Shown here: positions 387-34,317 of the stretch, piece by piece
Numbering within the stretch: the stretch's first letter is position 1
Layout: each line of letters opens with the position of its first letter
NCBI GenBank assembly: GCA_041661275.1
Contig: JBAZUU010000003.1
Span: 92,833-156,832 of the forward strand
Source of the DNA: Parcubacteria group bacterium
GTDB lineage: Bacteria; Patescibacteriota; Minisyncoccia; Moranbacterales; UBA2206
Direction of reading: 5' to 3'
Length of the DNA: 64,000 nucleotides
The notes under the pieces: model-generated
Told to the model about the DNA's origin: nothing
Databases searched by the model: none
What the model saw: only the letters and a program-made list of their open reading frames with translations
Program-made: the position numbers and the translations under genes

Positions 387-1415
387 ATGTTTAAGCCAAA
401 ATATACAATAACCAACAAGCTTTTAGGCAATATCAAGCGCATAGCGGAAATTGTTACCGACCTTAACAGCCGCAGTTTCCCGAAAGTCGTGCTTTATGAA
501 ATGGAACGCCGCGCTCGAGAAATATCAGCTCATTCTTCGACCAGCATTGAGGGCAACCCTTTGCCGCTTACGGAAGTTAAAAAAATTCTCAAAAACAAGC
601 CGGAATATGTTCGTGATTCCGAAAGAGAGATTTTGAATTATAACAAGGCCTTGGTTGAATTAAATGAATTGATTAAGGCGAAAGAAATTTCCCTGGACAT
701 CGAATGGCTGGAAAAAATTCAAAAAATGGTTACTGAAGACCTTATTGAAAAACATCGCCAGGGACATATTCGCACTGAACCGGTTTTTGTTAATAATCCA
801 AAAACTCGAAAAACAATTTATTGGCCGCCTGATCATCAGGAAGTGATGCCTTTACTAAAAGATCTATTTAATTTTCTAAAAGAAAACGTTCGGAAAATTG
901 ACCCGCTCATTCTGGCTGGAATTTTTCATAAAGAGTTTGTGATTATTCATCCGTTTATCGATGGCAATGGCCGTACGACACGACTGGCAACTAAAGTGCT
1001 TCTTGCAAAAATGGGGCTGAATACCTTCAATCTATTCAGTTTTGAAAACTATTACAACCAAAATGTCACTCGATATTTTCAAGAAGTAGGATTGGTCGGT
1101 AATTATTACGATCTTAAAGATAATGTCGATTTTACTTATTGGCTTGAATATTTTACGGATGGGATTATCGACGAACTTCTGCGAGTAGAAAAAGAACTGG
1201 AAAAAGAAGCGATTAGCCCTGACACAATTCTCAAAGATTATCACCAAAAAATAGTTGATTCTATTAAAAAGAGGGGTTTTATTACCGACAAGGATTATTC
1301 CGAGCTGACTGATCGTGCCAGGCCGACCAGGAATTTGGATTTTAGGAAACTCATTAATTTGGGAATTATCGTGAAGATTGGCAAAGGTAAGGCGACTTAT
1401 TATAAGTTGAAATGA
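387..1415 (+). CDS. Fic/Doc family protein with C-terminal wHTH-like tail
   Basis: It has the canonical Fic motif HPFIDGNGRTTR, as HPFx[D/E]GNGR. The length is 342 aa. Confidence 0.85.
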   Translation: MFKPKYTITNKLLGNIKRIAEIVTDLNSRSFPKVVLYEMERRAREISAHSSTSIEGNPLPLTEVKKILKNKPEYVRDSEREILNYNKALVELNELIKAKEISLDIEWLEKIQKMVTEDLIEKHRQGHIRTEPVFVNNPKTRKTIYWPPDHQEVMPLLKDLFNFLKENVRKIDPLILAGIFHKEFVIIHPFIDGNGRTTRLATKVLLAKMGLNTFNLFSFENYYNQNVTRYFQEVGLVGNYYDLKDNVDFTYWLEYFTDGIIDELLRVEKELEKEAISPDTILKDYHQKIVDSIKKRGFITDKDYSELTDRARPTRNLDFRKLINLGIIVKIGKGKATYYKLK

Positions 1416-23497: not shown

Positions 23498-24192
23498 AGC
23501 ATATAATTCTTCCGGGACTGACAACTACGCCGAAATCTGATTGGCGGGAAAAGATAAGAGAAATTGATCGATGTAGTATTGAAGAAATTGCACTATTTCC
23601 AACTTTTTTAGAACTGCCTGGCAGAAAAGAGCTTTATAGTCTCTTAGAAAATACCAAACTTAAGAGAATCCCGCATGTTCATCTACGAAGCGATATGGAA
23701 GCCTGGGAACTTGAATTGTTCAATAATAAATATAAAACCGAAGTTTTTAATATTCACCCGGAGCCAACAGAGCTAGGATTTCTTGAAAATTTAAAAAAGA
23801 CGGACAATGTCTATGTTGAAAATACTAACAAGATAACTGATTTTTATTTCGAAGTTGCGGATATGTGCGGTGGAGTCTGTCTGGATATTTCTCATTGGGA
23901 AGATTATGGTATTCCGGAGGGCTATGATGATTTCTCCCAAAAAATAGAAAAATATAAGATCGGTTGTTCTCATATATCGGCCATAAAAAAAGATTTTAAA
24001 ACTTGGGAACATTATACAACCAAGGAAAAATTAAATCTCTATAGCGATCATTATATGGACGATTTGAGTGAACTGGATTATGTGAAAAAATATGTCCAGT
24101 ATCTACCTGAATATGTTAGCATTGAGCTGGAAAATTCATTCGAAGAACAACTGAAAGTGAAGGAATATTTGGAGAAAATCATTAATGGATAA
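23494..24192 (+). CDS. hypothetical protein
   Basis: 232-aa ORF whose start overlaps the recJ stop. No family was recognised. Confidence 0.4.
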   Translation: MKHIILPGLTTTPKSDWREKIREIDRCSIEEIALFPTFLELPGRKELYSLLENTKLKRIPHVHLRSDMEAWELELFNNKYKTEVFNIHPEPTELGFLENLKKTDNVYVENTNKITDFYFEVADMCGGVCLDISHWEDYGIPEGYDDFSQKIEKYKIGCSHISAIKKDFKTWEHYTTKEKLNLYSDHYMDDLSELDYVKKYVQYLPEYVSIELENSFEEQLKVKEYLEKIING

Positions 24193-24691
24193 TAAAGTGA
24201 AAAAGGAAAAAATGATCATTTGTCGGGATATAAAGGGTAAAAAACTTGAATATCCCTTGAGTAAACTCAACTGGAGACCGTCTATTTACGGAGTTATCGT
24301 AGAAAATGATAAAGTTTTACTTTCCAAACAGTGGGACGGTTATGATTTTCCCGGAGGAGGAATAGATCTGGGTGAAACCTTAGAAGAGGCGCTGAAAAGA
24401 GAGGTTTGGGAGGAAACGGGCGTGAAAGTCAAGATTCTCGATCTAATAACCTGCGAATATGATTTTTTTAAGTTACCCCACGAAGATGGTTGTGTCCAAT
24501 CTATTCTTATCTACTATCTTTGTAAAAAGATTGGAGGGAAGATATCTATGGATAATTTTGATGAGCATGAAAAAAAATACGCCGACATGCCGGAGTGGGT
24601 AGATCTCAAGAAAGCCAGGAAAATTAAATTTTACAACCCGGTCAATAGTGTGGAAATAATTAAAAAAGCATTAAAACTATGTCAGAAGTAA
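24185..24691 (+). CDS. NUDIX hydrolase
   Basis: Nudix box GGGIDLGETLEEALKREVWEETG. Confidence 0.75.
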   Translation: MDNKVKKEKMIICRDIKGKKLEYPLSKLNWRPSIYGVIVENDKVLLSKQWDGYDFPGGGIDLGETLEEALKREVWEETGVKVKILDLITCEYDFFKLPHEDGCVQSILIYYLCKKIGGKISMDNFDEHEKKYADMPEWVDLKKARKIKFYNPVNSVEIIKKALKLCQK

Positions 24692-25113: not shown

Positions 25114-26127
25114 ATGTTTAAGAAAAAAAAGACCTACGTCATACTAATTATCATAATCGCGATTGTCGGCAGTGTTTTTTATTTCAAAAATAAAAAACCA
25201 AAAGTGGAATATACGACGCAAGATGTGAAAACCGGAACACTGGCGCAAACTGTTTCCGTGACAGGGGTGCTGGCTTCACCTAATCAGGCCGATTTGTCGT
25301 TCAAAATAAGCGGGCGATTGGAAAAAATGTATGTTGATATTGGTGATCCGGTAGTGAAAGGACAGAAAATCGCGACCATTGACGGAGGAACGCTTAATTC
25401 CCAATTGAATCAGGCCAAGGCAGAATTGCGGTCGCAAAAACAAACACTGGCCAGTATGAAACGGGGAGGATATAACGTAGAAAAAGAAAGGGCGCAAAGA
25501 GAACAGGTGAGGGCTGCGGAGGCGGCTGTTTCGCAAATTTTGGATCAGATTCGCGAAACAACAATATATGCGCCGATTGACGGTTTCATTATAAAAAAGA
25601 GTTCGGAAGTCGGCGAAATCATCGCGGCTAATTCCGCGGCTGGAAACACGCCGGTGGTGACTATCGCCCGAAACGATGATTTGGAAATTCGGACTAATGT
25701 TCCAGAATCGGATATTGTGAAAGTTACGCTTGGTCAAAATGCTGACGTAACGCTGGACGCGCTTTCATCAGCCGATGTTTTCAACGCCAAAGTGAGCGAG
25801 ATAGAGCCGGCATCAACGGTCATCCAGGATGTGGTTTATTACAAAGTGAAATTGAAATTTGATAGCCTTGATCCGCGTTTCAAAAATGGAATGAGCACAG
25901 ATGCGGATATAAAAACAGCCGAGCGTAGCAATGTCGTCTTCGCGCCAATGCGCGCGGTCAAAACCGAAAACGGACAAAAATATGTGGAAGTTCTGAAGGA
26001 TGAAAAAAACGGCGTGACGGAAAAAGTTAATGTTACCACAGGAATGGGAGGCGATGATGGGATGGTGGAGATAAAATCGGGGTTGAAAGGTGGGGAGAAG
26101 GTGGTGACGTTGACGAAGAACATCTGA
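25114..26127 (+). CDS. HlyD/MacA-family periplasmic adaptor (membrane fusion protein)
   Basis: TM anchor, lipoyl-like and beta-barrel segments with a coiled-coil insert. Confidence 0.75.
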   Translation: MFKKKKTYVILIIIIAIVGSVFYFKNKKPKVEYTTQDVKTGTLAQTVSVTGVLASPNQADLSFKISGRLEKMYVDIGDPVVKGQKIATIDGGTLNSQLNQAKAELRSQKQTLASMKRGGYNVEKERAQREQVRAAEAAVSQILDQIRETTIYAPIDGFIIKKSSEVGEIIAANSAAGNTPVVTIARNDDLEIRTNVPESDIVKVTLGQNADVTLDALSSADVFNAKVSEIEPASTVIQDVVYYKVKLKFDSLDPRFKNGMSTDADIKTAERSNVVFAPMRAVKTENGQKYVEVLKDEKNGVTEKVNVTTGMGGDDGMVEIKSGLKGGEKVVTLTKNI

Positions 26128-26189: not shown

Positions 26190-26621
26190 CCGTCATCCCG
26201 AGCGGAGTGATGTCGCGTAGCGACAGAACGTAGTCGAGGGATCTGCCAAAGACTATTTCTAGTTATACGATAATGAAGCAACCTTGCGTATATATAATGA
26301 CTAATCATTCCCGGACATTATATATTGGTGTAACTGGTAGTGTTCAAAGACGAGTCTGGGAGCATAAAGAAAAATTAATAGAAGGATTTACAAAAAAATA
26401 CAATATAGACAGGTTGGTATATTATGAATTTTTTGAAGATTTTGCGGGTGCTATAGCCAGAGAAAAACAATTAAAACACTGGAGCAGAAAAAAGAAGATA
26501 TGGCTTATCGAAAAAGAGAATTCTTTATGGCTAGATTTATATGATGGATTATAGTCAGTGGTAACCCAAGGCAGATCTCTCGACTCGTTCGACTTATTGT
26601 CGAACTCGCTCGAGATGACGA
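26190..26621. mobile_element. large member of the CCGTCAT hairpin family carrying a GIY-YIG gene
   Basis: Left end ccgtcatcccgagcgg...agtcgagggatctgcc and right end ggcagatctctcgact...cgctcgagatgacg are reverse complements. They enclose the ORF 26273-26554. Confidence 0.75.
26273..26554 (+). CDS. GIY-YIG nuclease family protein (YhbQ/COG2827-like)
   Basis: The sequence begins MKQPCVYIMTNHSRTLYIGVTG..RRVWEHK and continues through YYEFFED..AIAREKQLKHWSRKKK. Confidence 0.8.
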   Translation: MKQPCVYIMTNHSRTLYIGVTGSVQRRVWEHKEKLIEGFTKKYNIDRLVYYEFFEDFAGAIAREKQLKHWSRKKKIWLIEKENSLWLDLYDGL

Positions 26622-26652
26622 TTTTTTATTAATGTAATTTTGAAAATAAAAA

Positions 26653-26692
26653 AGCCCCATCCTGCTTTGTGGGACGGGGCTGGCTGAGGGCG
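26653..26692 (-). terminator. rho-independent terminator for the minus-strand gene
   Basis: The reverse complement reads gccccgtcccacaaagcaggatggggc followed by tttttatttt. Confidence 0.5.
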
Positions 26693-26748
26693 TTGCCAGA
26701 AAACGTGGTGGCGACGGTCTGTTAATGCTTAGTTCAGCGAAAGAATTT

Positions 26749-27036
26749 CTATTCAGATTTCAAAACAACTTTTTGTATCTTGCCCACATGCTCATTGATT
26801 GCTGTCAGGGCGAGATAGGGGTCTGCTATTATGAAGGAAACTTCGTAGTTTCCAGAATAACTACTCCCGCACTGCTTGATTGAACCTGGAAGCGCTCCCC
26901 ATTCAGTAGTTTTTTTTTCGAGTATCTTTGTCAAATGATCCTTTCCTGCCGAGAAGTGAAGGCCATAAAAAATCACTACTTTCGCTCCATCGGGAATCTT
27001 TTCCAGTGGACTGGTTACTTCCTCATAAAGGTACAT
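26749..27036 (-). CDS. hypothetical protein
   Basis: 95-aa ORF with AGGAGG 8 nt before its ATG on the minus strand. It is the only confident minus-strand CDS in the window. Confidence 0.5.
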   Translation of the reverse strand: MYLYEEVTSPLEKIPDGAKVVIFYGLHFSAGKDHLTKILEKKTTEWGALPGSIKQCGSSYSGNYEVSFIIADPYLALTAINEHVGKIQKVVLKSE

Positions 27037-27122: not shown

Positions 27123-27854
27123 ATGTCAAATGCATTAATCCAAGTCCAAAATCTTTGCAAAACTTATAGCGATGACGGCGTGAAGACGACGGCGCTTTGT
27201 GGCGCTAATTTTCAAATTGAAAAAGGGGAATTTGTGGCGATTATGGGACCGTCGGGATCCGGGAAATCAACCCTCATGCAGCTTCTTGGGCTTCTTGACA
27301 AGCCGACAGACGGGAAATATATTTTTGAAGGGAAAGACACGACCACTTTTGATGATGACGCCTTGGCGGAATTCAGGAATAAAAGAATCGGTTTTGTTTT
27401 TCAGGCATTCAATCTTTTGCCGAGAACTTCTGTTTATGAAAACGTAGAATTACCATTGCTTTATGACGAAAAGCCGGACAATAATGGCAGTAACAAAGAA
27501 AAGGTGTCAGCGGCGTTAGAAGCGGTAGGAATGAGCCACCGGACTGATTATATGTCCAATCAATTGTCCGGTGGAGAAAAACAACGGGTAGCTATTGCTC
27601 GCGCTTTGGTCAATAATCCGGACGTAGTTTTTGCCGACGAGCCAACGGGAAATTTGGATTCCAAATCAGGAATACGCGTGATGGAAATTTTGCAAAAACT
27701 AAACAACGATGGCCACACTATAATTTTGGTCACGCACGAAACATACACAGCTGAACATTCAAAGCGAATAATATATCTTCGCGATGGCGAGATCGTGGCA
27801 GATGATCCGGTGAAGAATAGGAGAGTGGCGCAAGATGGGGAACTATTGAAATAA
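27123..27854 (+). CDS. ABC transporter ATP-binding protein (MacB/LolD-like)
   Basis: Walker A GPSGSGKST, the LSGGEKQRVAIARAL signature, and the Walker B/D-loop. Confidence 0.9.
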   Translation: MSNALIQVQNLCKTYSDDGVKTTALCGANFQIEKGEFVAIMGPSGSGKSTLMQLLGLLDKPTDGKYIFEGKDTTTFDDDALAEFRNKRIGFVFQAFNLLPRTSVYENVELPLLYDEKPDNNGSNKEKVSAALEAVGMSHRTDYMSNQLSGGEKQRVAIARALVNNPDVVFADEPTGNLDSKSGIRVMEILQKLNNDGHTIILVTHETYTAEHSKRIIYLRDGEIVADDPVKNRRVAQDGELLK

Positions 27855-27859
27855 TTTAC

Positions 27860-27992
27860 CCGTCATTCTGAGCGGAATGAGGCCTTTGGCCGAATGTAGT
27901 CGAAGAATCTACCAAATATTAGCACTAGTGATAATTTATAGCAGATCCTTCGACTACGTCCAATAAGAATTGGACTTCGCTCAGGATGACGG
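27860..27992. mobile_element. MITE-like hairpin element, copy B
   Basis: ccgtcattctgagcgg ... cgctcaggatgacgg, placed 6 bp after the ATPase stop. Confidence 0.8.
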
Positions 27993-27999
27993 CGTTATT

Positions 28000-29247
28000 A
28001 TGCGGCTTATTGATCCTATCCGAATATCCTATAAGAATTTAATGGCGGCGAAGTTCCGCTCGTTTTTAACTATTCTTGGAATCATCATTGGTGTGGCGTC
28101 GGTCGTTATCATTATGGCCATCGGACAATCAGCGCAAGCTTTGATTTTGGATCAAGTTTCAGGCATTGGTTCTAATTTAGTTGGAATTTTGCCTGGAGCA
28201 AGTGACGAAAAAGGACCACCGGCGGCAGCGATGGGGATAAAAGTGACCACTTTGAAGTACGGCGATTTGGAAGCGCTGCGCGACGGGAAAAATGCACCAG
28301 AAGTGCAAGACGCGGCCGGATATGTCATGGGATCGGAAACTGCTAAATATAACGGAACGTCGCTCACGGTTTCATTCACCGGAACGACGGCTAGTTATGT
28401 TGATGTGGAAAATGCAGAAGTAATTGATGGACGATTTATGACAAAAACAGAAGAAGTGGATATGTCGCGGGTAGCAATTGTGGGAAAAAATATTGTCCGC
28501 GATTTATTCCTCGGTGACGACCCGATCGGAAAAACTTTTACGCTAAAAGATCAAAATTTCACCGTTATCGGGGTTTTCAAGGAAAAAGGCGGCGGAGGAT
28601 TTGGAACGTCGAGTGTGGACGACTCGGTTTTTATTCCGCTAACGACCGCACAAAAATTGATGCTGGGAATTGACTACATTGCTTTTGTTCGCACTAAAGT
28701 TAAGAGTGCCGATCTTATCCCCTATGCTATCGAGGACATCAAAACCACTCTTCGCGAGCGGCATCATATTGATAATCCGGCCAATGACGATTTTTCAGTG
28801 CGCGACCAGGCGCAAGCCATTGAAATGATAAAAAATATCACTAATGTTTTGCGATATTTTCTCCTGGCTATTGGAACGATTTCTCTTATTGTTGGTGGGG
28901 TAGGGATTATGAATACAATGCTCATCGTAGTAAATCAGCGGATACGTGAAGTGGGACTGCGAAAAGCGGTCGGAGCGAAAACAAAAGATATTCTTTTGCA
29001 ATTTTTGATAGAATCGTCAGCCATTTCTTTTTTTGGTGGAATTTTGGGAATAATTTTTGGGATAATCGTTTCATTCTTAGCCGCGCTCGTTATGCAAGCG
29101 CTGAAATATAAATGGCCATTTATGATTTCCTGGCAGTCGATCGTGGTCGCTATGTTTGTTTCCATCGCCATTGGAGTGGTTTTTGGGATGTATCCCGCCA
29201 GGAGAGCGTCGAAGATAAGTCCGATGGAAGCGTTGAGATATGAGTAG
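28000..29247 (+). CDS. ABC transporter permease (FtsX/MacB-type, periplasmic core domain)
   Basis: N-terminal TM, large periplasmic domain and three C-terminal TMs. The ORF-track start 27970 (MDFAQDDG) is inside the repeat. The likely start is MRLIDP at 28000. Confidence 0.8.
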   Translation: MRLIDPIRISYKNLMAAKFRSFLTILGIIIGVASVVIIMAIGQSAQALILDQVSGIGSNLVGILPGASDEKGPPAAAMGIKVTTLKYGDLEALRDGKNAPEVQDAAGYVMGSETAKYNGTSLTVSFTGTTASYVDVENAEVIDGRFMTKTEEVDMSRVAIVGKNIVRDLFLGDDPIGKTFTLKDQNFTVIGVFKEKGGGGFGTSSVDDSVFIPLTTAQKLMLGIDYIAFVRTKVKSADLIPYAIEDIKTTLRERHHIDNPANDDFSVRDQAQAIEMIKNITNVLRYFLLAIGTISLIVGGVGIMNTMLIVVNQRIREVGLRKAVGAKTKDILLQFLIESSAISFFGGILGIIFGIIVSFLAALVMQALKYKWPFMISWQSIVVAMFVSIAIGVVFGMYPARRASKISPMEALRYE

Positions 29248-29415: not shown

Positions 29416-30669
29416 ATGCATCACTTGATAGTCTCAATCAAACTCGCTTTTAAAAACCTCCGCTCGAACATTGCCCGGACGCTTTTGTCATTGCTTGGCA
29501 TAGTCATCGGCGTGGCGTCTGTCATTCTAGTTTTGTCTTTTGGATCAGGAGTGAAACAATATCTAGTGGATCAGGTTTCTTCCTTTGGAACAGACATAAT
29601 GCAGATCGAAGTGAAAGTGCCGAAAGTCAACAAGATGTCTCAGGCTAATGCTGGTGGGCAAGTGGGTGGAGTGACTATTACTACGCTTAAATTAGAGGAT
29701 GCTCAAAAAATAGCGAAACTTCCCAACATTGATTCTTGGTATGCGATGGTAATCACCCAACAGATAACTAGTTTTGAAAATAAGAAAAAGCAAGCCATGA
29801 TAATTGGAGTGAGTCCAGATGTGACAAAAGCTGACCCAAAAACGGAAATTGATGAGGGACAGATGTTCACCAACGAAGACGATGGCGGCCTGCGACAGGT
29901 GGCGGTTTTGGGCAGCAAGATGAAAGAATATTATTTTGGCAGTGGTGACGCCATCGGTCAGAGCATCAAAGTGAAAGGCCAAACATACAAGGTTATTGGA
30001 ACACTCAAAAGCCGCGGCACAACCGGAGTTTTTTCTTTTGACGATACTCTTTATGTTCCCCTCCAGACAGCGCAGAAAAAACTAGCTGGAATTAATTATA
30101 TCCAAACGATGATTTTTAAACTGAAAGACATGACCAAGCTAGACCTAACTATTGCGCAAGCAACAGACATTATGCGGATACAACACCATATAACTAATCC
30201 GGACGACGATGATTTTGCGGTCAATTCTATTGTGGAAATACTAAATATTTTGAATACGGTTTTCTTTGCGGTAAACGCGCTTCTTCTCGCGCTCACCTCC
30301 ATTTCGCTAGTCGTGGGAGGAGTGGGGATAATGAATGTGATGTACGTGGCGGTAACGGAACGGACGTTTGAAATCGGTCTCAAAAAATCGGTCGGCGCCA
30401 AAAATTTTTCCATTCTCGCGCAATTTCTTTTTGAGGCAGTGTTTCTGACGATCCTTGGCGGCATCATCGGACTTATCGTCGGATTCTTGATTACTAGTGG
30501 AGCGGAAATTATTATCGCCAGTTTTGGCTATAAAATCGGTCTGACAATTACTTGGTGGTCGGTGCTCATCGGCGCCGGATTCTCTGCCGTTGTCGGAATC
30601 CTTTTTGGCTACTGGCCGGCGAGAAATGCGTCAAGAATGACACCGATGGATGCGTTGAGGAGGGAATAA
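29416..30669 (+). CDS. ABC transporter permease (FtsX/MacB-type), second paralogue
   Basis: Same architecture as 28000-29247. Confidence 0.8.
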   Translation: MHHLIVSIKLAFKNLRSNIARTLLSLLGIVIGVASVILVLSFGSGVKQYLVDQVSSFGTDIMQIEVKVPKVNKMSQANAGGQVGGVTITTLKLEDAQKIAKLPNIDSWYAMVITQQITSFENKKKQAMIIGVSPDVTKADPKTEIDEGQMFTNEDDGGLRQVAVLGSKMKEYYFGSGDAIGQSIKVKGQTYKVIGTLKSRGTTGVFSFDDTLYVPLQTAQKKLAGINYIQTMIFKLKDMTKLDLTIAQATDIMRIQHHITNPDDDDFAVNSIVEILNILNTVFFAVNALLLALTSISLVVGGVGIMNVMYVAVTERTFEIGLKKSVGAKNFSILAQFLFEAVFLTILGGIIGLIVGFLITSGAEIIIASFGYKIGLTITWWSVLIGAGFSAVVGILFGYWPARNASRMTPMDALRRE

Positions 30670-30832
30670 ATTCACTTAGACATCACTTAGACATTTGATG
30701 TCTAAGTAGTAATATTTGATTTATTAAGACTTTTTCTATATCATAAGAGCACGTTTTTGTGTCGGTTGGGAGGAGCTGTTTTCGAGGGGGTCGCTCTTTT
30801 TGATTTGAATATTTTTGAGAAGGGAGAGTAAT

Positions 30833-31240
30833 ATGCAAATTAAAATCGATAAACCGCTTGGCGAAAGTAAGCTCGGCAGTACCTTTGGAACAAAATGGAA
30901 CAATCTTCATATGGGTACCACCAGTGCTATAACGTGCATATGCGGGACAAAGCACCCGGAACTTCCTGAAAATGCTGACAGCCTGATGGTTAGCCAGTTT
31001 TTGGGAGCGGAGGTGGTCGAGGAGTGCTGCGGAGCGGTTCTGGACATAGTTTACCAGGAATCCGGCGAGATTTTTGCCACAAGGTTTTTGGAGGAGTTCG
31101 CTGAAAACCCGAGCGATCCCAGATTTGCTGTGTTTAGACTGGAACTAAAGGGAAGTATCGCAGATGCAGTTCGGAAACTTTCCGAAGTCGGTGCTGAACT
31201 GCAAGGGATTGATCAGGACATTCAAAAAATAGGCGAGTAA
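30833..31240 (+). CDS. hypothetical Cys-containing protein (about 135 aa)
   Basis: AGGGAG RBS before the ATG at 30833. It contains the CICG and EECCG motifs. Local GC is elevated. Confidence 0.4.
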   Translation: MQIKIDKPLGESKLGSTFGTKWNNLHMGTTSAITCICGTKHPELPENADSLMVSQFLGAEVVEECCGAVLDIVYQESGEIFATRFLEEFAENPSDPRFAVFRLELKGSIADAVRKLSEVGAELQGIDQDIQKIGE

Positions 31241-31456
31241 CAAATGCCTGCTGTCTTGGCTCGCGTTGCACATCCGTTCATTTGAATAGATGCGCAGCGC
31301 GGGCTGTTTTTATATCGATTTCAAATCATTGACAAATATTGTTTTTTAGTTAATAATAACCTGACATCTATGTATGTCGAGGTTCGTTAAAAATTTGTCA
31401 AAAACCAGGAATTTCCTGTTTACAGTTAATAACCCAACAATCAGAAGGGGATAGAT

Positions 31457-32662
31457 ATGGACGAAAAAGAAGCTATTGAGAATCATCGCTGGCGAGTGAA
31501 TATTTGCCTTTCGGGCAAATGTGATCGGGGATGCCACCATTGCCTTGCCAATGGCAGTATGAATGGCGGATCGTTTTTTACCCTTGAACAGGCGTATATT
31601 CTGGCCAAGAACGTAAAAAAATTTGTCGACACTTTGAACGACAGAAAAATTGATCTGAGGCTTGGATTTGCTTGTACTGGGAACGGCGAAATTATGCTTA
31701 ATTCGCAATATCCGCAAATTTTCGACGTTTTTTTCAACATTGCTTCGGATGTGGAAGCAAGAATTGTTACTTCTGGCGTCGACTCAAATGAGGAAGAGCA
31801 AAGATTGCTTGAAATACTGTCCAGGCCATATGCGAAGAAATTGGAATGGTATTTGAGCTTCAACCTTTTTCAGTCTGGTTTTCCCAAGCGGCTTGTGAGA
31901 ACGTTGAAATTGTTTTTTGAGAATGGTGTGGACAAGGTGATGATTAAGATAACACAAGCACCTCAGGATGTTTATGGAGCGATAAGGAAGCTCAATAGAA
32001 TCATTGAGGGATATTTTGCGAAATGGATCCGGGAAGTTAGGCCGCTCATTATCAGTCTCGATACAGATTTTGTTCCGGTTGATTTTTCAAAATCGACCGA
32101 ACAAATGATGCTGGATTTATTTGACGGCAACCTTTCACCGAATCCGGATATCAGCTCAAGAAATCTACAGGCCACCCTGAAGAATGTCCGATCGCCGACT
32201 AGAGAAACGCTGGGAGGGTTGTTTGTTCATTTGAACACCAACTTCGATCGTGCTTTCCGTTTCGAGACCCGTTACGGAGAGAAGAAAATTGTCTATGCTC
32301 CGCAGCATCTTATCAAGCGCGGTCGAGCAGCCACCCTGAAGAATGTCAGATGGCGATTCCCGGACATCAAAACTCCGTGCAGATATCTCCGCTCAACGGA
32401 AGAAAAAACTTCTCCCATTCACATCGGATCGGATGGGTTCTATTATCCAAGTTGTGATTGTCCGAGTGTTGAAGAAATGCGCATTGGGCATATTAAAGAC
32501 GATATTTCTTCTATGCTTAGTAGTTTCTATGTGTTGCATCGATTGCTGCTGTTTTGCATGATAAAAGATAACCAGTGGTATGACGACATATGCGACCATT
32601 GCATTCATGTCATGCAAAGACTGAGAAATCAGAAATTCCTCAGCGAGATAGGAATCGCATAA
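31457..32662 (+). CDS. radical SAM domain protein with C-terminal Cys-rich (SPASM/twitch-like) region
   Basis: N-terminal CDRGCHHC, as CxxxCxxC, followed by a GNGE (GGE-like) motif. C-terminal cysteines occur at CRYL..SCDC..FCMI..CDHC. Confidence 0.55.
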   Translation: MDEKEAIENHRWRVNICLSGKCDRGCHHCLANGSMNGGSFFTLEQAYILAKNVKKFVDTLNDRKIDLRLGFACTGNGEIMLNSQYPQIFDVFFNIASDVEARIVTSGVDSNEEEQRLLEILSRPYAKKLEWYLSFNLFQSGFPKRLVRTLKLFFENGVDKVMIKITQAPQDVYGAIRKLNRIIEGYFAKWIREVRPLIISLDTDFVPVDFSKSTEQMMLDLFDGNLSPNPDISSRNLQATLKNVRSPTRETLGGLFVHLNTNFDRAFRFETRYGEKKIVYAPQHLIKRGRAATLKNVRWRFPDIKTPCRYLRSTEEKTSPIHIGSDGFYYPSCDCPSVEEMRIGHIKDDISSMLSSFYVLHRLLLFCMIKDNQWYDDICDHCIHVMQRLRNQKFLSEIGIA

Positions 32663-32813
32663 AATAGTCCCTCCGACCCCTTGCGGCCGGCGGGATTTTT
32701 CTTTATTCTAAAAATCAACAATATTACGCAATATTTTCCAAATTTTGCAACTTGTACATTTTTCTTATTGTGATAATCTATAAATACCGAGGTAAATGGC
32801 CTAAAAATATTTT

Positions 32814-33224
32814 ATGGACGAAATCAAAAATGTTGACGACTATGTCAATGACGCAAAAACGAAAGAAATTCACGACGGAGATGATAATGGAAATACAAAA
32901 AGAGGGAAAAGAGATTATTATATTGAATTAGCGCTGTTTTTGATTTTAGGAATTCTTCTGGGTGTGGCTATAAAAACAGAAGCGGTCAAAAAAGTGACGA
33001 TCGGATTCAATGATTATAAAATGAAAATCATGAATCAGGATTTTGATATAAACAAATTGGAAAAAGACGCGCTGGCCAAGCAAATGGAAGCAGCCAAACA
33101 AGATCAGGCAAATGGCGCGGCGCAAAATCCTGGAGATAATACTTCCGGTACGGATTCTAATGTTCCAGCGCAGGATAACGCGCAAAATAATACGCCAAGC
33201 GACAATAATTCACAAAATCAATAA
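32814..33224 (+). CDS. membrane-anchored protein with Asn/Gln-rich tail
   Basis: One TM helix and a low-complexity C-terminus. Confidence 0.35.
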   Translation: MDEIKNVDDYVNDAKTKEIHDGDDNGNTKRGKRDYYIELALFLILGILLGVAIKTEAVKKVTIGFNDYKMKIMNQDFDINKLEKDALAKQMEAAKQDQANGAAQNPGDNTSGTDSNVPAQDNAQNNTPSDNNSQNQ

Positions 33225-33243: not shown

Positions 33244-34317
33244 ATGGAAGACACTAAAAAAGGGGAGGAAAAGTGTAATTGCGGGAGCGCTGACTGCAAA
33301 GATTGCCAGTGTGCGAAAAGAACAAAAAATTTAATTTCCATTGCTATTCTTCTGGCTGGACTTCTTATTGGAAGTATTTTTGTTGATGTGGCGCAACTGA
33401 TGAAAGGCAGTGGATATTCTACAAAGAATCTAAATAAATCGGACATTTTTGAATCTTCCGGAAAAACCTGGGTGGCTTATGGCGATCCGGCTGTACCTGT
33501 GACTATCATCAATGACGATTCTTGCGAGAAATGCGACGTGACGGAGCCGGTAGTCTGGCTAAAACGTGTCTTGCCGACCATCAGTACCAAAAAAGTCAGT
33601 TATGACAGCGCCGAAGGAAAAAGCTTGATCGATAAATTTAGCATCAAAACTCTGCCGGCATTTATTTTTGATCCGGCTATAGCAAAAACTGAATTCTTTA
33701 CGCAAGCGGCGGTTATTTTTGATCAGAAAAACGGACAGTATGTTCTGAAAAATCAAGAATTAGGATTGCCAGCCGGGAAATATCTGGCGCTTCCGGACAT
33801 TTCTGAAGGTGACGCAACATTTGGGAAAACCGATTCCAACGTGAAGGTTGTGGTTTTCTCTGATTTCCAATGTCCATATTGCAAAATTCTTTATTCTACA
33901 TTACGGACTACGATGAAGCAATATAGCGACAAAGTCTATTTTGCCTATAAACATTTGCCGCTCGACATTCATTCTCAAGCTAACAATGCTGCTTTGGCAT
34001 CGGAATGCGCGCAGGATCAGGGAAAATTCTGGGAATATGCGGACAAGCTATATCAAAATCAGACATCCTGGTCAAACACAAAAGACGTGGCTAGTTTTAA
34101 AACTTATGCCAGACAGACTGCTGGTATAGATACTGCAAAATTTAACACTTGTCTAGACGACAAAAAGTTCCAGGACAAAATCGATGCTGACAAGAAAGAA
34201 GCGGGAGATTTCGGAATTTCCGGAACACCGGCAATTTTCATCAATGACCAGTTCGAAAATGGAGCAATGACTGCTGATCAGATGAAGCAGGCGATTGATT
34301 CAAAGTTGGCACAGTAA
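33244..34317 (+). CDS. DsbA-like thiol-disulfide oxidoreductase, double thioredoxin fold, Cys-rich N-terminus
   Basis: CEKC and CPYC CxxC motifs. The N-terminus is CNCGSADCKDCQC followed by a TM helix. Confidence 0.7.
   Translation: MEDTKKGEEKCNCGSADCKDCQCAKRTKNLISIAILLAGLLIGSIFVDVAQLMKGSGYSTKNLNKSDIFESSGKTWVAYGDPAVPVTIINDDSCEKCDVTEPVVWLKRVLPTISTKKVSYDSAEGKSLIDKFSIKTLPAFIFDPAIAKTEFFTQAAVIFDQKNGQYVLKNQELGLPAGKYLALPDISEGDATFGKTDSNVKVVVFSDFQCPYCKILYSTLRTTMKQYSDKVYFAYKHLPLDIHSQANNAALASECAQDQGKFWEYADKLYQNQTSWSNTKDVASFKTYARQTAGIDTAKFNTCLDDKKFQDKIDADKKEAGDFGISGTPAIFINDQFENGAMTADQMKQAIDSKLAQ

Follow-up and report, generated by a model that had tools for sequence, protein, structure and literature searches.

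Radical S-adenosyl methionine (SAM) enzymes generate a 5'-deoxyadenosyl radical, which then abstracts a hydrogen atom from the substrate. In QhpD acting on QhpC and anSME acting on sulfatases, such an enzyme modifies a folded protein, such as a small cysteine-rich subunit, encoded next door, not a short secreted peptide. We describe here a locus of a Parcubacteria group bacterium (GTDB lineage Bacteria; Patescibacteriota; Minisyncoccia; Moranbacterales; UBA2206), in which a gene for a radical SAM protein of 401 amino acids (aa) follows a gene for a four-cysteine protein of 135 aa. The DNA analysed, called the window below, comprises 64,000 nt of the assembly GCA_041661275.1 (contig JBAZUU010000003.1, positions 92,833-156,832, forward strand); coordinates are those of the window unless a contig is named. 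Its region 30670-32800 holds the two open reading frames (ORFs), both on the plus strand. The reading that we prefer, with a probability of roughly one half, is that of an optional twitch-type radical SAM enzyme which acts on the 135-aa protein or needs it as a partner, the substrate or partner role being inferred from the gene neighbourhoods described below.

EpeE (YydG) of Bacillus subtilis (PDB 8AI1-8AI6; family TIGR04078) is the best full-length structural match of the 401-aa protein. Both have a radical SAM core and a single auxiliary [4Fe-4S] cluster, which is predicted here and lies in an 'extended twitch' domain in EpeE (PMC13012085). However, the sequence identity is 10-12%, and the 401-aa protein reaches 13.8 bits with TIGR04078 against an equivalog cut-off of 300. 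It is about 80 residues longer, with an insert at approximately 195-265, and no equivalents of the catalytic residues Cys223 and Asp210 of EpeE were assigned in it. Whereas the EpeE/YydG operon includes the EpeX/YydF precursor, a protease and an ABC (ATP-binding cassette) transporter, the 401-aa protein is encoded without a precursor, a protease or a dedicated transporter.

BtrN (PDB 4M7T), the 2-deoxy-scyllo-inosamine dehydrogenase of butirosin biosynthesis and the prototype twitch enzyme, is the best PDB match of the family profile. The alignment covers both the CxxxCxxC/GGE core and the C-terminal domain with the auxiliary CxxC, and in both proteins four cysteines would fully ligate one auxiliary cluster (predicted here). 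In contrast to the 401-aa protein, BtrN has 250 aa, uses an aminoglycoside precursor as a substrate and is encoded inside an antibiotic gene cluster, no such cluster being present at our locus; its Foldseek match to the model of the 401-aa protein is weaker than that of EpeE. QhpD and anSME resemble the pair described here in concept, the modification being hypothetical in our case, but they possess a full SPASM domain with two auxiliary clusters, whereas four C-terminal cysteines are conserved in the present family, and no amine dehydrogenase or sulfatase genes were found near the 401-aa gene. As each family disagrees with the protein in either score or genomic context, the 401-aa protein is placed outside YydG/EpeE, BtrN, anSME, viperin and the other curated families. 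A literature search on radical SAM/SPASM systems of the candidate phyla radiation (CPR) provided nothing describing the family of either protein.

The 401-aa protein and its family

The gene (31457-32662, plus strand) was assigned on the basis of its ORF, a family profile, a structural model and structure matches. An identical public protein from a metagenome-assembled genome is annotated as hypothetical. With PF04055, the protein reaches E = 0.044 (14.4 bits), which is below the Pfam gathering cut-off of 29.5, and its sole NCBIfam match is rSAM_yydG (the TIGR04078 score given above, E 0.03). A word-indexed search of 5.8 billion proteins retrieved the protein itself and one relative with 78% identity, and almost no further members were found when a word-indexed search was done with the family profile. 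When 1.84 billion cluster representatives were searched exhaustively with a HMMER profile, 71 relatives were obtained, 51 of them at <1e-10, and every member with an organism name comes from a CPR bacterium. A locus search with 12 family sequences gave one genome locus (L004), a Moranbacteria contig which ends 139 bp past the gene.

The family alignment comprises 59 members, to which all conservation counts refer. Since 55 of them match PF04055 (E <= 0.01, best 9e-14), the protein is classed as a radical SAM enzyme despite its own score below the threshold. Fer4_12 was matched by 15 members and SPASM (PF13186, E <= 0.01) by 8, the 401-aa protein itself falling below that level. The matches to NCBIfam are weak (1e-7 to 1e-11) and scattered over many SPASM/twitch families, including W-cofactor maturase, MoaA, spiro-SPASM, NirJ, YydG (best member on TIGR04078, E 1.2e-10), mycofactocin and HxsB/C. 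Judged by these profile comparisons, no curated NCBIfam or Pfam model covers the family.

The predicted SAM-binding [4Fe-4S] motif C22-x3-C26-x2-C29 (CDRGCHHC; codons at 31520-31543, plus strand) is kept in 57 of the 59 members, the remaining two being truncated N-terminally, and aligns to the cluster motif CNRTCWYC of BtrN. Further invariant or near-invariant residues are G75-x-G77-E78 (GNGE here), T105-S106-G107 of the ribose motif T/S-x-G, S134, R145 and G289-R290. The N-terminal CxxxCxxC, the GNGE and the C-terminal cysteine cluster pointed out in the initial annotation are all present, and the first of them aligns to the radical SAM core.

The C-terminal cysteines of the protein are at positions 308, 333, 335, 367, 379 and 382. 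C308, C335, C379 and C382 are kept in 54-57 of the 59 members (>=90%), C333 is found in 36 (61%) and C367 is not conserved; G327 and G344 are also conserved in this third of the family. The family profile aligns to residues 177-242 of BtrN, including the auxiliary-cluster motif C232-x2-C235. A full SPASM domain (PF13186 / TIGR04085) carries approximately 7-8 cysteines and two clusters, whereas the four conserved cysteines suffice for one auxiliary cluster and not for two. The domain (codons 308-382, 32378-32602, plus strand; delimited from conservation counts and the BtrN profile alignment) is consequently best described as a twitch domain, that is, a truncated SPASM with one auxiliary cluster which can be aligned to BtrN, MoaA or SkfB (PMC9012708), with a single predicted auxiliary [4Fe-4S] cluster. 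The earlier suggestion of a SPASM/twitch-like C-terminus therefore stands as far as a SPASM-related Fe-S domain is concerned but not as a full two-cluster SPASM.

An AlphaFold2 model from a two-sequence alignment (predicted local distance difference test, pLDDT, 41.7) was set aside, and the model used rests on the 59-sequence alignment (pLDDT 88.9, predicted template modelling (TM) score 0.87). In this model, beta/alpha elements alternate across residues 8-208 as in the partial (beta/alpha)6 TIM-barrel core, and beta-hairpins at 265-284 and 321-330 are followed by helices. A helical insert at roughly residues 195-265 is specific to the clade. Foldseek matched the model to many radical SAM structures in the PDB with a probability of 1.00. 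EpeE/YydG was at the top (E 6e-5; TM-score 0.49 by query and 0.59 by target), followed by ChlB, viperin-like enzymes (N-terminal core only) and then SpeY, CteB and BtrN. When the family profile was compared with the PDB, BtrN (9.5e-11) ranked first and YydG (3e-10) second. Taken together, profiles and model identify the 401-aa protein as a radical SAM enzyme, though a very divergent one, from the SPASM/twitch branch. The resemblance to peptide-modifying enzymes proposed previously is borne out, remotely, as the nearest characterised relatives include the maturases EpeE/YydG, ChlB and CteB.

The ORF was compared with that of the 78%-identical relative on the contig L028. The identity is 82, 91 and 63% at the first, second and third codon positions, respectively, which indicates that the gene is under purifying selection. 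A 25-nt direct repeat (32171-32195 and 32330-32354; copies 92% identical) was noticed inside the ORF. It encodes ATLKNVRS and ATLKNVRW, respectively; the first copy lies in the clade-specific insert, the second after the family-invariant G-R-A. In P0002, the relative with 78% identity, the repeat is less pronounced.

Two other assignments were discarded. A PADLOC scan gave no match for the window proteins, and a defence system was rejected accordingly. Matches to prokaryotic viperins (pVip) were obtained in PADLOC solely with the N-terminal part of an enzyme from another Parcubacteria clade (clade B, see below), and they span only the N-terminal 100-190 residues of the radical SAM core; as a pVip should match over its full length, with the C-terminal nucleotide-binding extension, membership in pVip was rejected. 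No family member was found in a scan of viral contigs, which gives no sign of phage carriage.

The 135-aa protein and the radical SAM cassette

The 135-aa gene (30833-31240, plus strand) starts with an ATG preceded by the Shine-Dalgarno sequence AGGGAG, and the homologues share this start. It is the small cysteine protein described earlier as lying upstream of the enzyme, with C-I-C-G and E-E-C-C-G. A protein search gave 9 homologues and a metagenome scan 15 further loci. Neither Pfam nor NCBIfam nor PADLOC contains a match for the protein, and its PDB hits, among them C2H2 zinc fingers (E ~0.02-0.04) and a Nif11 domain (E 0.49), are weak and not significant. Invariant in the family are P-x-G, W-N, C-x-x-C-G (which reads C-x-C-G in the window and in the contig L001), V-V-E-x-C-C-G, D71 and E76, and the block F-L-E-E-F-A-x-N-P is strongly conserved. 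The N-terminal 100 residues with the cysteines are conserved, whereas the cysteine-free C-terminal stretch of approximately 40 residues is variable. Judging from these motifs, the protein is probably metal-binding. With its four cysteines kept under selection even where the radical SAM gene is missing, it looks like a folded cytoplasmic protein and unlike a leader-core precursor.

The closest 135-aa homologue (77% identity) is encoded on L001, a contig of 250 kb with the gene order of the window: RecJ, RNase H, HlyD, ABC, MacB, MacB, the small protein, a 131-aa membrane protein and DsbA, and then the four subunits of pyruvate:ferredoxin oxidoreductase (POR), rubrerythrin, ZIP and RF-1. L001 lacks the radical SAM gene, and the small-protein gene is followed there by the next one after only 155 bp. 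A three-way alignment of the left part of the window, L001 and the right part of the window delimits a segment of 1,409 bp (31312-32720) that holds a promoter, a leader, the radical SAM ORF and a terminator. ATAT occurs at both junctions, so that each boundary is ambiguous by 4 bp. The segment begins directly after a terminator-like hairpin with a T-run (31294-31311, plus strand; terminator scan, conserved in L001), which ends the transcription unit of the 135-aa gene. On the right it reaches almost to the conserved promoter region of the next gene, that of a 136-aa protein, and it is closed by another terminator-like hairpin with a T-run (32680-32704, plus strand; terminator scan), which is also present in L028. 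In L028, the cassette occupies the same site ahead of the same downstream gene. The radical SAM gene is thus a self-contained accessory indel cassette, variably present among close relatives.

A mobile element was considered and rejected: the terminal inverted repeats (31323-31343 and 32717-32737, 76% complementary) are AT-rich and too weak, and no transposase or integrase is present at the cassette. The radical SAM gene and the next gene both open with TATGGACGAAA (M-D-E), and the 24-nt stretches 31456-31479 and 32813-32836 are 75% identical. These shared starts may be due to chance or may be a trace of the recombination that made the indel.

The second setting of the pair is found in clade B (Portnoybacteria and relatives; loci L002/L003/L008, L011/L012 and L014). 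The gene order there is MiaB-like radical SAM, twitch radical SAM (342-364 aa), small protein and MiaA, the twitch gene lying 6-17 nt upstream of the small-protein gene. The clade-B twitch enzyme is a distant member of the family (30% identity over the N-terminal 160 residues, E 2e-19). The radical SAM gene is located downstream of the 135-aa gene in the window but upstream of it in clade B, and the two groups of adjacent enzymes are widely separated in the family tree. The locus L013 shows the clade-B synteny without the twitch gene, the small-protein gene following the MiaB-like gene after 55 nt. In L011 (897-2020), the twitch gene is split into two ORFs in overlapping frames (897-1259 and 1286-2020). 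The existence of an intact protein with 97% identity (P0033, 374 aa) indicates either a frameshift, that is, a pseudogene, or an assembly error.

The 135-aa protein is the only recurring neighbour of the radical SAM enzyme. Other neighbours of the 135-aa family are unrelated to one another (enolase, ThyX, a LexA-like S24 peptidase, HepT and Ig-domain proteins). We infer a functional tie because in two syntenic frameworks the radical SAM gene, when present, always touches the 135-aa gene; repeated adjacency without such a tie is very unlikely for two families this rare. The conserved neighbourhood of the pair, on which the initial annotation depended, was thereby confirmed in the comparisons with the clade-B loci and L013.

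Transcription signals and neighbouring genes

A scan found a sigma-70-like promoter of the radical SAM gene, TTGACA-17-AATAAT (31329-31357, plus strand; 11 of 12 matches), which is conserved in L028 and L020; promoter and transcript start are recognizable in L020, L021 and L023. It is followed by a conserved 5' leader of approximately 93 nt (31364-31456, plus strand) with the palindrome CAGGAA-T-TTCCTG (31406-31418) and the Shine-Dalgarno sequence GAAGGGGA. Promoter and leader are 87% identical to those of L028, compared with 63% at the third codon positions of the ORF. A scan of 30600-32900 against Rfam gave no match and the leader does not fold better than shuffled sequence (z = -0.95); a riboswitch is therefore unsupported. 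The stretch 31329-31456 is read as a promoter plus a conserved 5' untranslated region with a putative regulatory role.

The word AGTTAATAA occurs within the 64 kb only at 31348 and, in the leader, at 31424 (31424-31434), that is, at this promoter and leader. The two copies in the spacer had been proposed as a possible operator. They do exist; however, the -10 hexamer AATAAT falls within the first word AGTTAATAATAACC (31348-31361), which is thus largely the -10 region of the promoter, and the L028 counterparts, AATCAATAA and AGTTGATAA, are both different from AGTTAATAA, so neither copy is kept letter for letter. The leader also holds a 26-aa ORF (MSRFVKNLSKTRNF...; 31374-31454) that lacks a Shine-Dalgarno sequence. 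Over approximately the first 14 codons it resembles the L028 sequence, and a 1-nt indel then alters the reading frame; the ORF is unlikely to encode a conserved peptide.

Upstream of the 135-aa gene are the genes of an HlyD-like adaptor (25114-26127), an ABC ATPase (27123-27854) and two MacB_PCD/FtsX permeases (27970-29247 and 29416-30669). Downstream of the radical SAM gene, a 136-aa single-pass membrane protein (32814-33224) separates it from a membrane-anchored Thioredoxin_4/DSBA protein with a cysteine-rich N-terminus (33244-34317). Domain matches agree with the annotation given previously to these flanks, an ABC export set and a membrane-anchored DsbA-like protein with the cysteine-rich N-terminus. 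The GC-rich islet that had been reported for 30670-32800 does not exist: its GC content is 0.422 compared with 0.411 for the whole window, which is the 66th percentile among equal-sized windows, and the upstream ABC genes are even higher (0.439).

L001, which has no radical SAM gene, still keeps the ABC set, DsbA and the 131-aa counterpart of the 136-aa protein. These genes are consequently independent of the enzyme and not parts of a module with it; the ABC set and DsbA are ordinary conserved synteny.

Several one-gene differences were observed across the syntenic block. A gene with a GIY-YIG nuclease domain (93 aa, 26273-26554; Pfam E 4e-14) separates the HlyD-like gene from that of the ABC ATPase, accompanied by an unannotated 95-aa ORF on the minus strand (interval 26273-27036). 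In L001, the HlyD-like and ABC ATPase genes abut, which makes this another single-gene indel, and in L006 a homologous GIY-YIG gene (519-800, minus strand) is found just upstream of a gene of the 135-aa family. A NUDIX hydrolase gene (24185-24691) between a 232-aa gene and RNase H is not at that place in L001, where, instead, the 236-aa gene is preceded by a Methyltransf_24 gene. Right after the stop codon of the second MacB gene (30673-30707), two tandem copies of the 11-nt unit TCACTTAGACA are followed by an inverted one. The copies form a perfect 10-bp hairpin with a terminator-like match, and a different, non-homologous GC-rich hairpin is found at the same place in L001.

Possible roles of the pair

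If the 401-aa protein works as its motifs suggest, the N-terminal [4Fe-4S] cluster bound by C22, C26 and C29 would cleave SAM, and the resulting 5'-deoxyadenosyl radical would take a hydrogen atom from the substrate. Epimerization, cross-linking or two-electron oxidation might follow, the chemistry being predicted by analogy. The auxiliary cluster, fully ligated by C308, C335, C379 and C382, would serve as an electron conduit; fully ligated twitch clusters usually transfer electrons, the role proposed in BtrN and EpeE (PMC9012708; PMC13012085). The 135-aa protein would be either the substrate, modified optionally, or an obligatory partner. Optional modification fits the data because the 135-aa protein is conserved without the enzyme and the enzyme is variably present beside it, and because the full-length fold similarity is highest to peptide-modifying enzymes.

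Several observations weigh against this assignment. About 8 of the 12 distinct small-protein loci have no radical SAM gene in the available sequence, several of these contigs being short, and no small-protein gene is near the family members in L021, L024, L027, L029 and L031. With loci carrying one gene and not the other, the association is facultative on both sides. In the window, the terminator and the promoter between the two genes show that they do not form one operon. In lineages that lack the enzyme, none of the conserved residues of the 135-aa protein has been lost, which implies that the main function of this protein is independent of the enzyme. The similarity of the enzyme to peptide maturases is remote (TM ~0.5, 10-12% identity), and the small-molecule twitch enzymes BtrN and SpeY score about equally.

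The main rival holds that the 135-aa protein is not modified but is a rubredoxin-like or Fe-S carrier of electrons or sulfur for the radical SAM enzyme and maybe for others. We consider this unlikely, although the four invariant cysteines in knuckle-like CxxCG and CCG motifs and the conserved N-terminal 100 residues are typical of a folded metal site, and persistence without the twitch enzyme would suit a carrier. So would the position of the small-protein gene directly after that of a MiaB-like methylthiotransferase, a multi-cluster radical SAM enzyme, in clade B even where the twitch gene is missing, and the POR and rubrerythrin genes located approximately 3 and 6.4 kb downstream of the 135-aa gene in the window. 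On the other hand, no ferredoxin, rubredoxin or sulfur-carrier family resembles the protein, two neighbouring cysteines make an unusual set of metal ligands, and many members of the radical SAM family have no gene of the 135-aa type nearby. A substrate of another kind, a small molecule or RNA in tRNA or cofactor chemistry, would make the adjacency mechanistically meaningless. The equal scores of BtrN, SpeY, MoaA and viperin to those of peptide enzymes point in this direction, as do the location of the clade-B gene with a tRNA modification gene on either side (MiaB-like and miaA) and the fact that most family members stand alone among housekeeping genes. We nevertheless regard it as rather doubtful: the adjacency occurs in two gene orders, two syntenic contexts and two distant clades of the enzyme, for which chance is very unlikely, and the window context contains no tRNA-modification genes.

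The initial annotation had raised a module of the type that produces peptides made on the ribosome and then modified post-translationally (RiPPs), in which the enzyme would mature a peptide exported by HlyD/ABC/MacB and oxidized by the DsbA-like protein. This idea is suggested by the nearest characterised relative, EpeE/YydG, being a RiPP epimerase encoded in an operon with an ABC transporter, and by MacB_PCD/FtsX genes within a few genes of family members in two other lineages (L021 1635-2888 and L029 5441-6682, both on the minus strand), but such permeases are common in CPR genomes and their proximity in the window, L021 and L029 may be due to chance. The retention of the whole set, unchanged, in L001 speaks against the module, and neither a transporter nor a protease nor DsbA is encoded at the clade-B loci. 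When the surroundings of ten family members were screened for short ORFs that might be precursors, none was conserved, in line with the remark made at the outset that no precursor was evident, and the 26-aa leader ORF is frame-shifted in L028. A RiPP precursor is recognized by a conserved leader and a variable core beside its maturase. The only candidate, the 135-aa protein, has neither this layout nor a signal peptide, as its cysteine part is the conserved one, its tail is variable and it is also kept where the maturase is missing. With no conserved short ORF, no protease gene at the locus and an exporter that is independent of the enzyme, a classical RiPP cluster is unlikely; the proposal that included export and DsbA-dependent oxidation we consider highly improbable.

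Action on the 135-aa protein, or partnership with it, thus remains the explanation that we prefer for the accessory enzyme. In its wider form, in which a family known to date from the CPR only places an optional, lineage-variable modification on the 135-aa protein or uses it as a redox or sulfur carrier, the proposal is put forward as tentative. If true, it would mean that bacteria with minimal genomes possess a two-component system for protein modification not described before. The SPASM/twitch branch was already known; what is new is an orphan twitch radical SAM enzyme, so far found only in the CPR, coupled to a novel four-cysteine protein. Both families, that of the enzyme counting 71 clusters among 1.84 billion representatives, are without a curated model, and a tempting RiPP/exporter/DsbA annotation has been removed from the locus. 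As CPR genomes are very small, a stand-alone accessory radical SAM gene under purifying selection is likely to have a specific job. Its repeated gain or loss right beside the 135-aa gene provides a testable substrate or partner hypothesis for an orphan enzyme. Should the pair not be a protein-modification system, the family would be one more uncharacterised radical SAM subfamily; should it be one, it would represent a new class of targets for twitch radical SAM chemistry.

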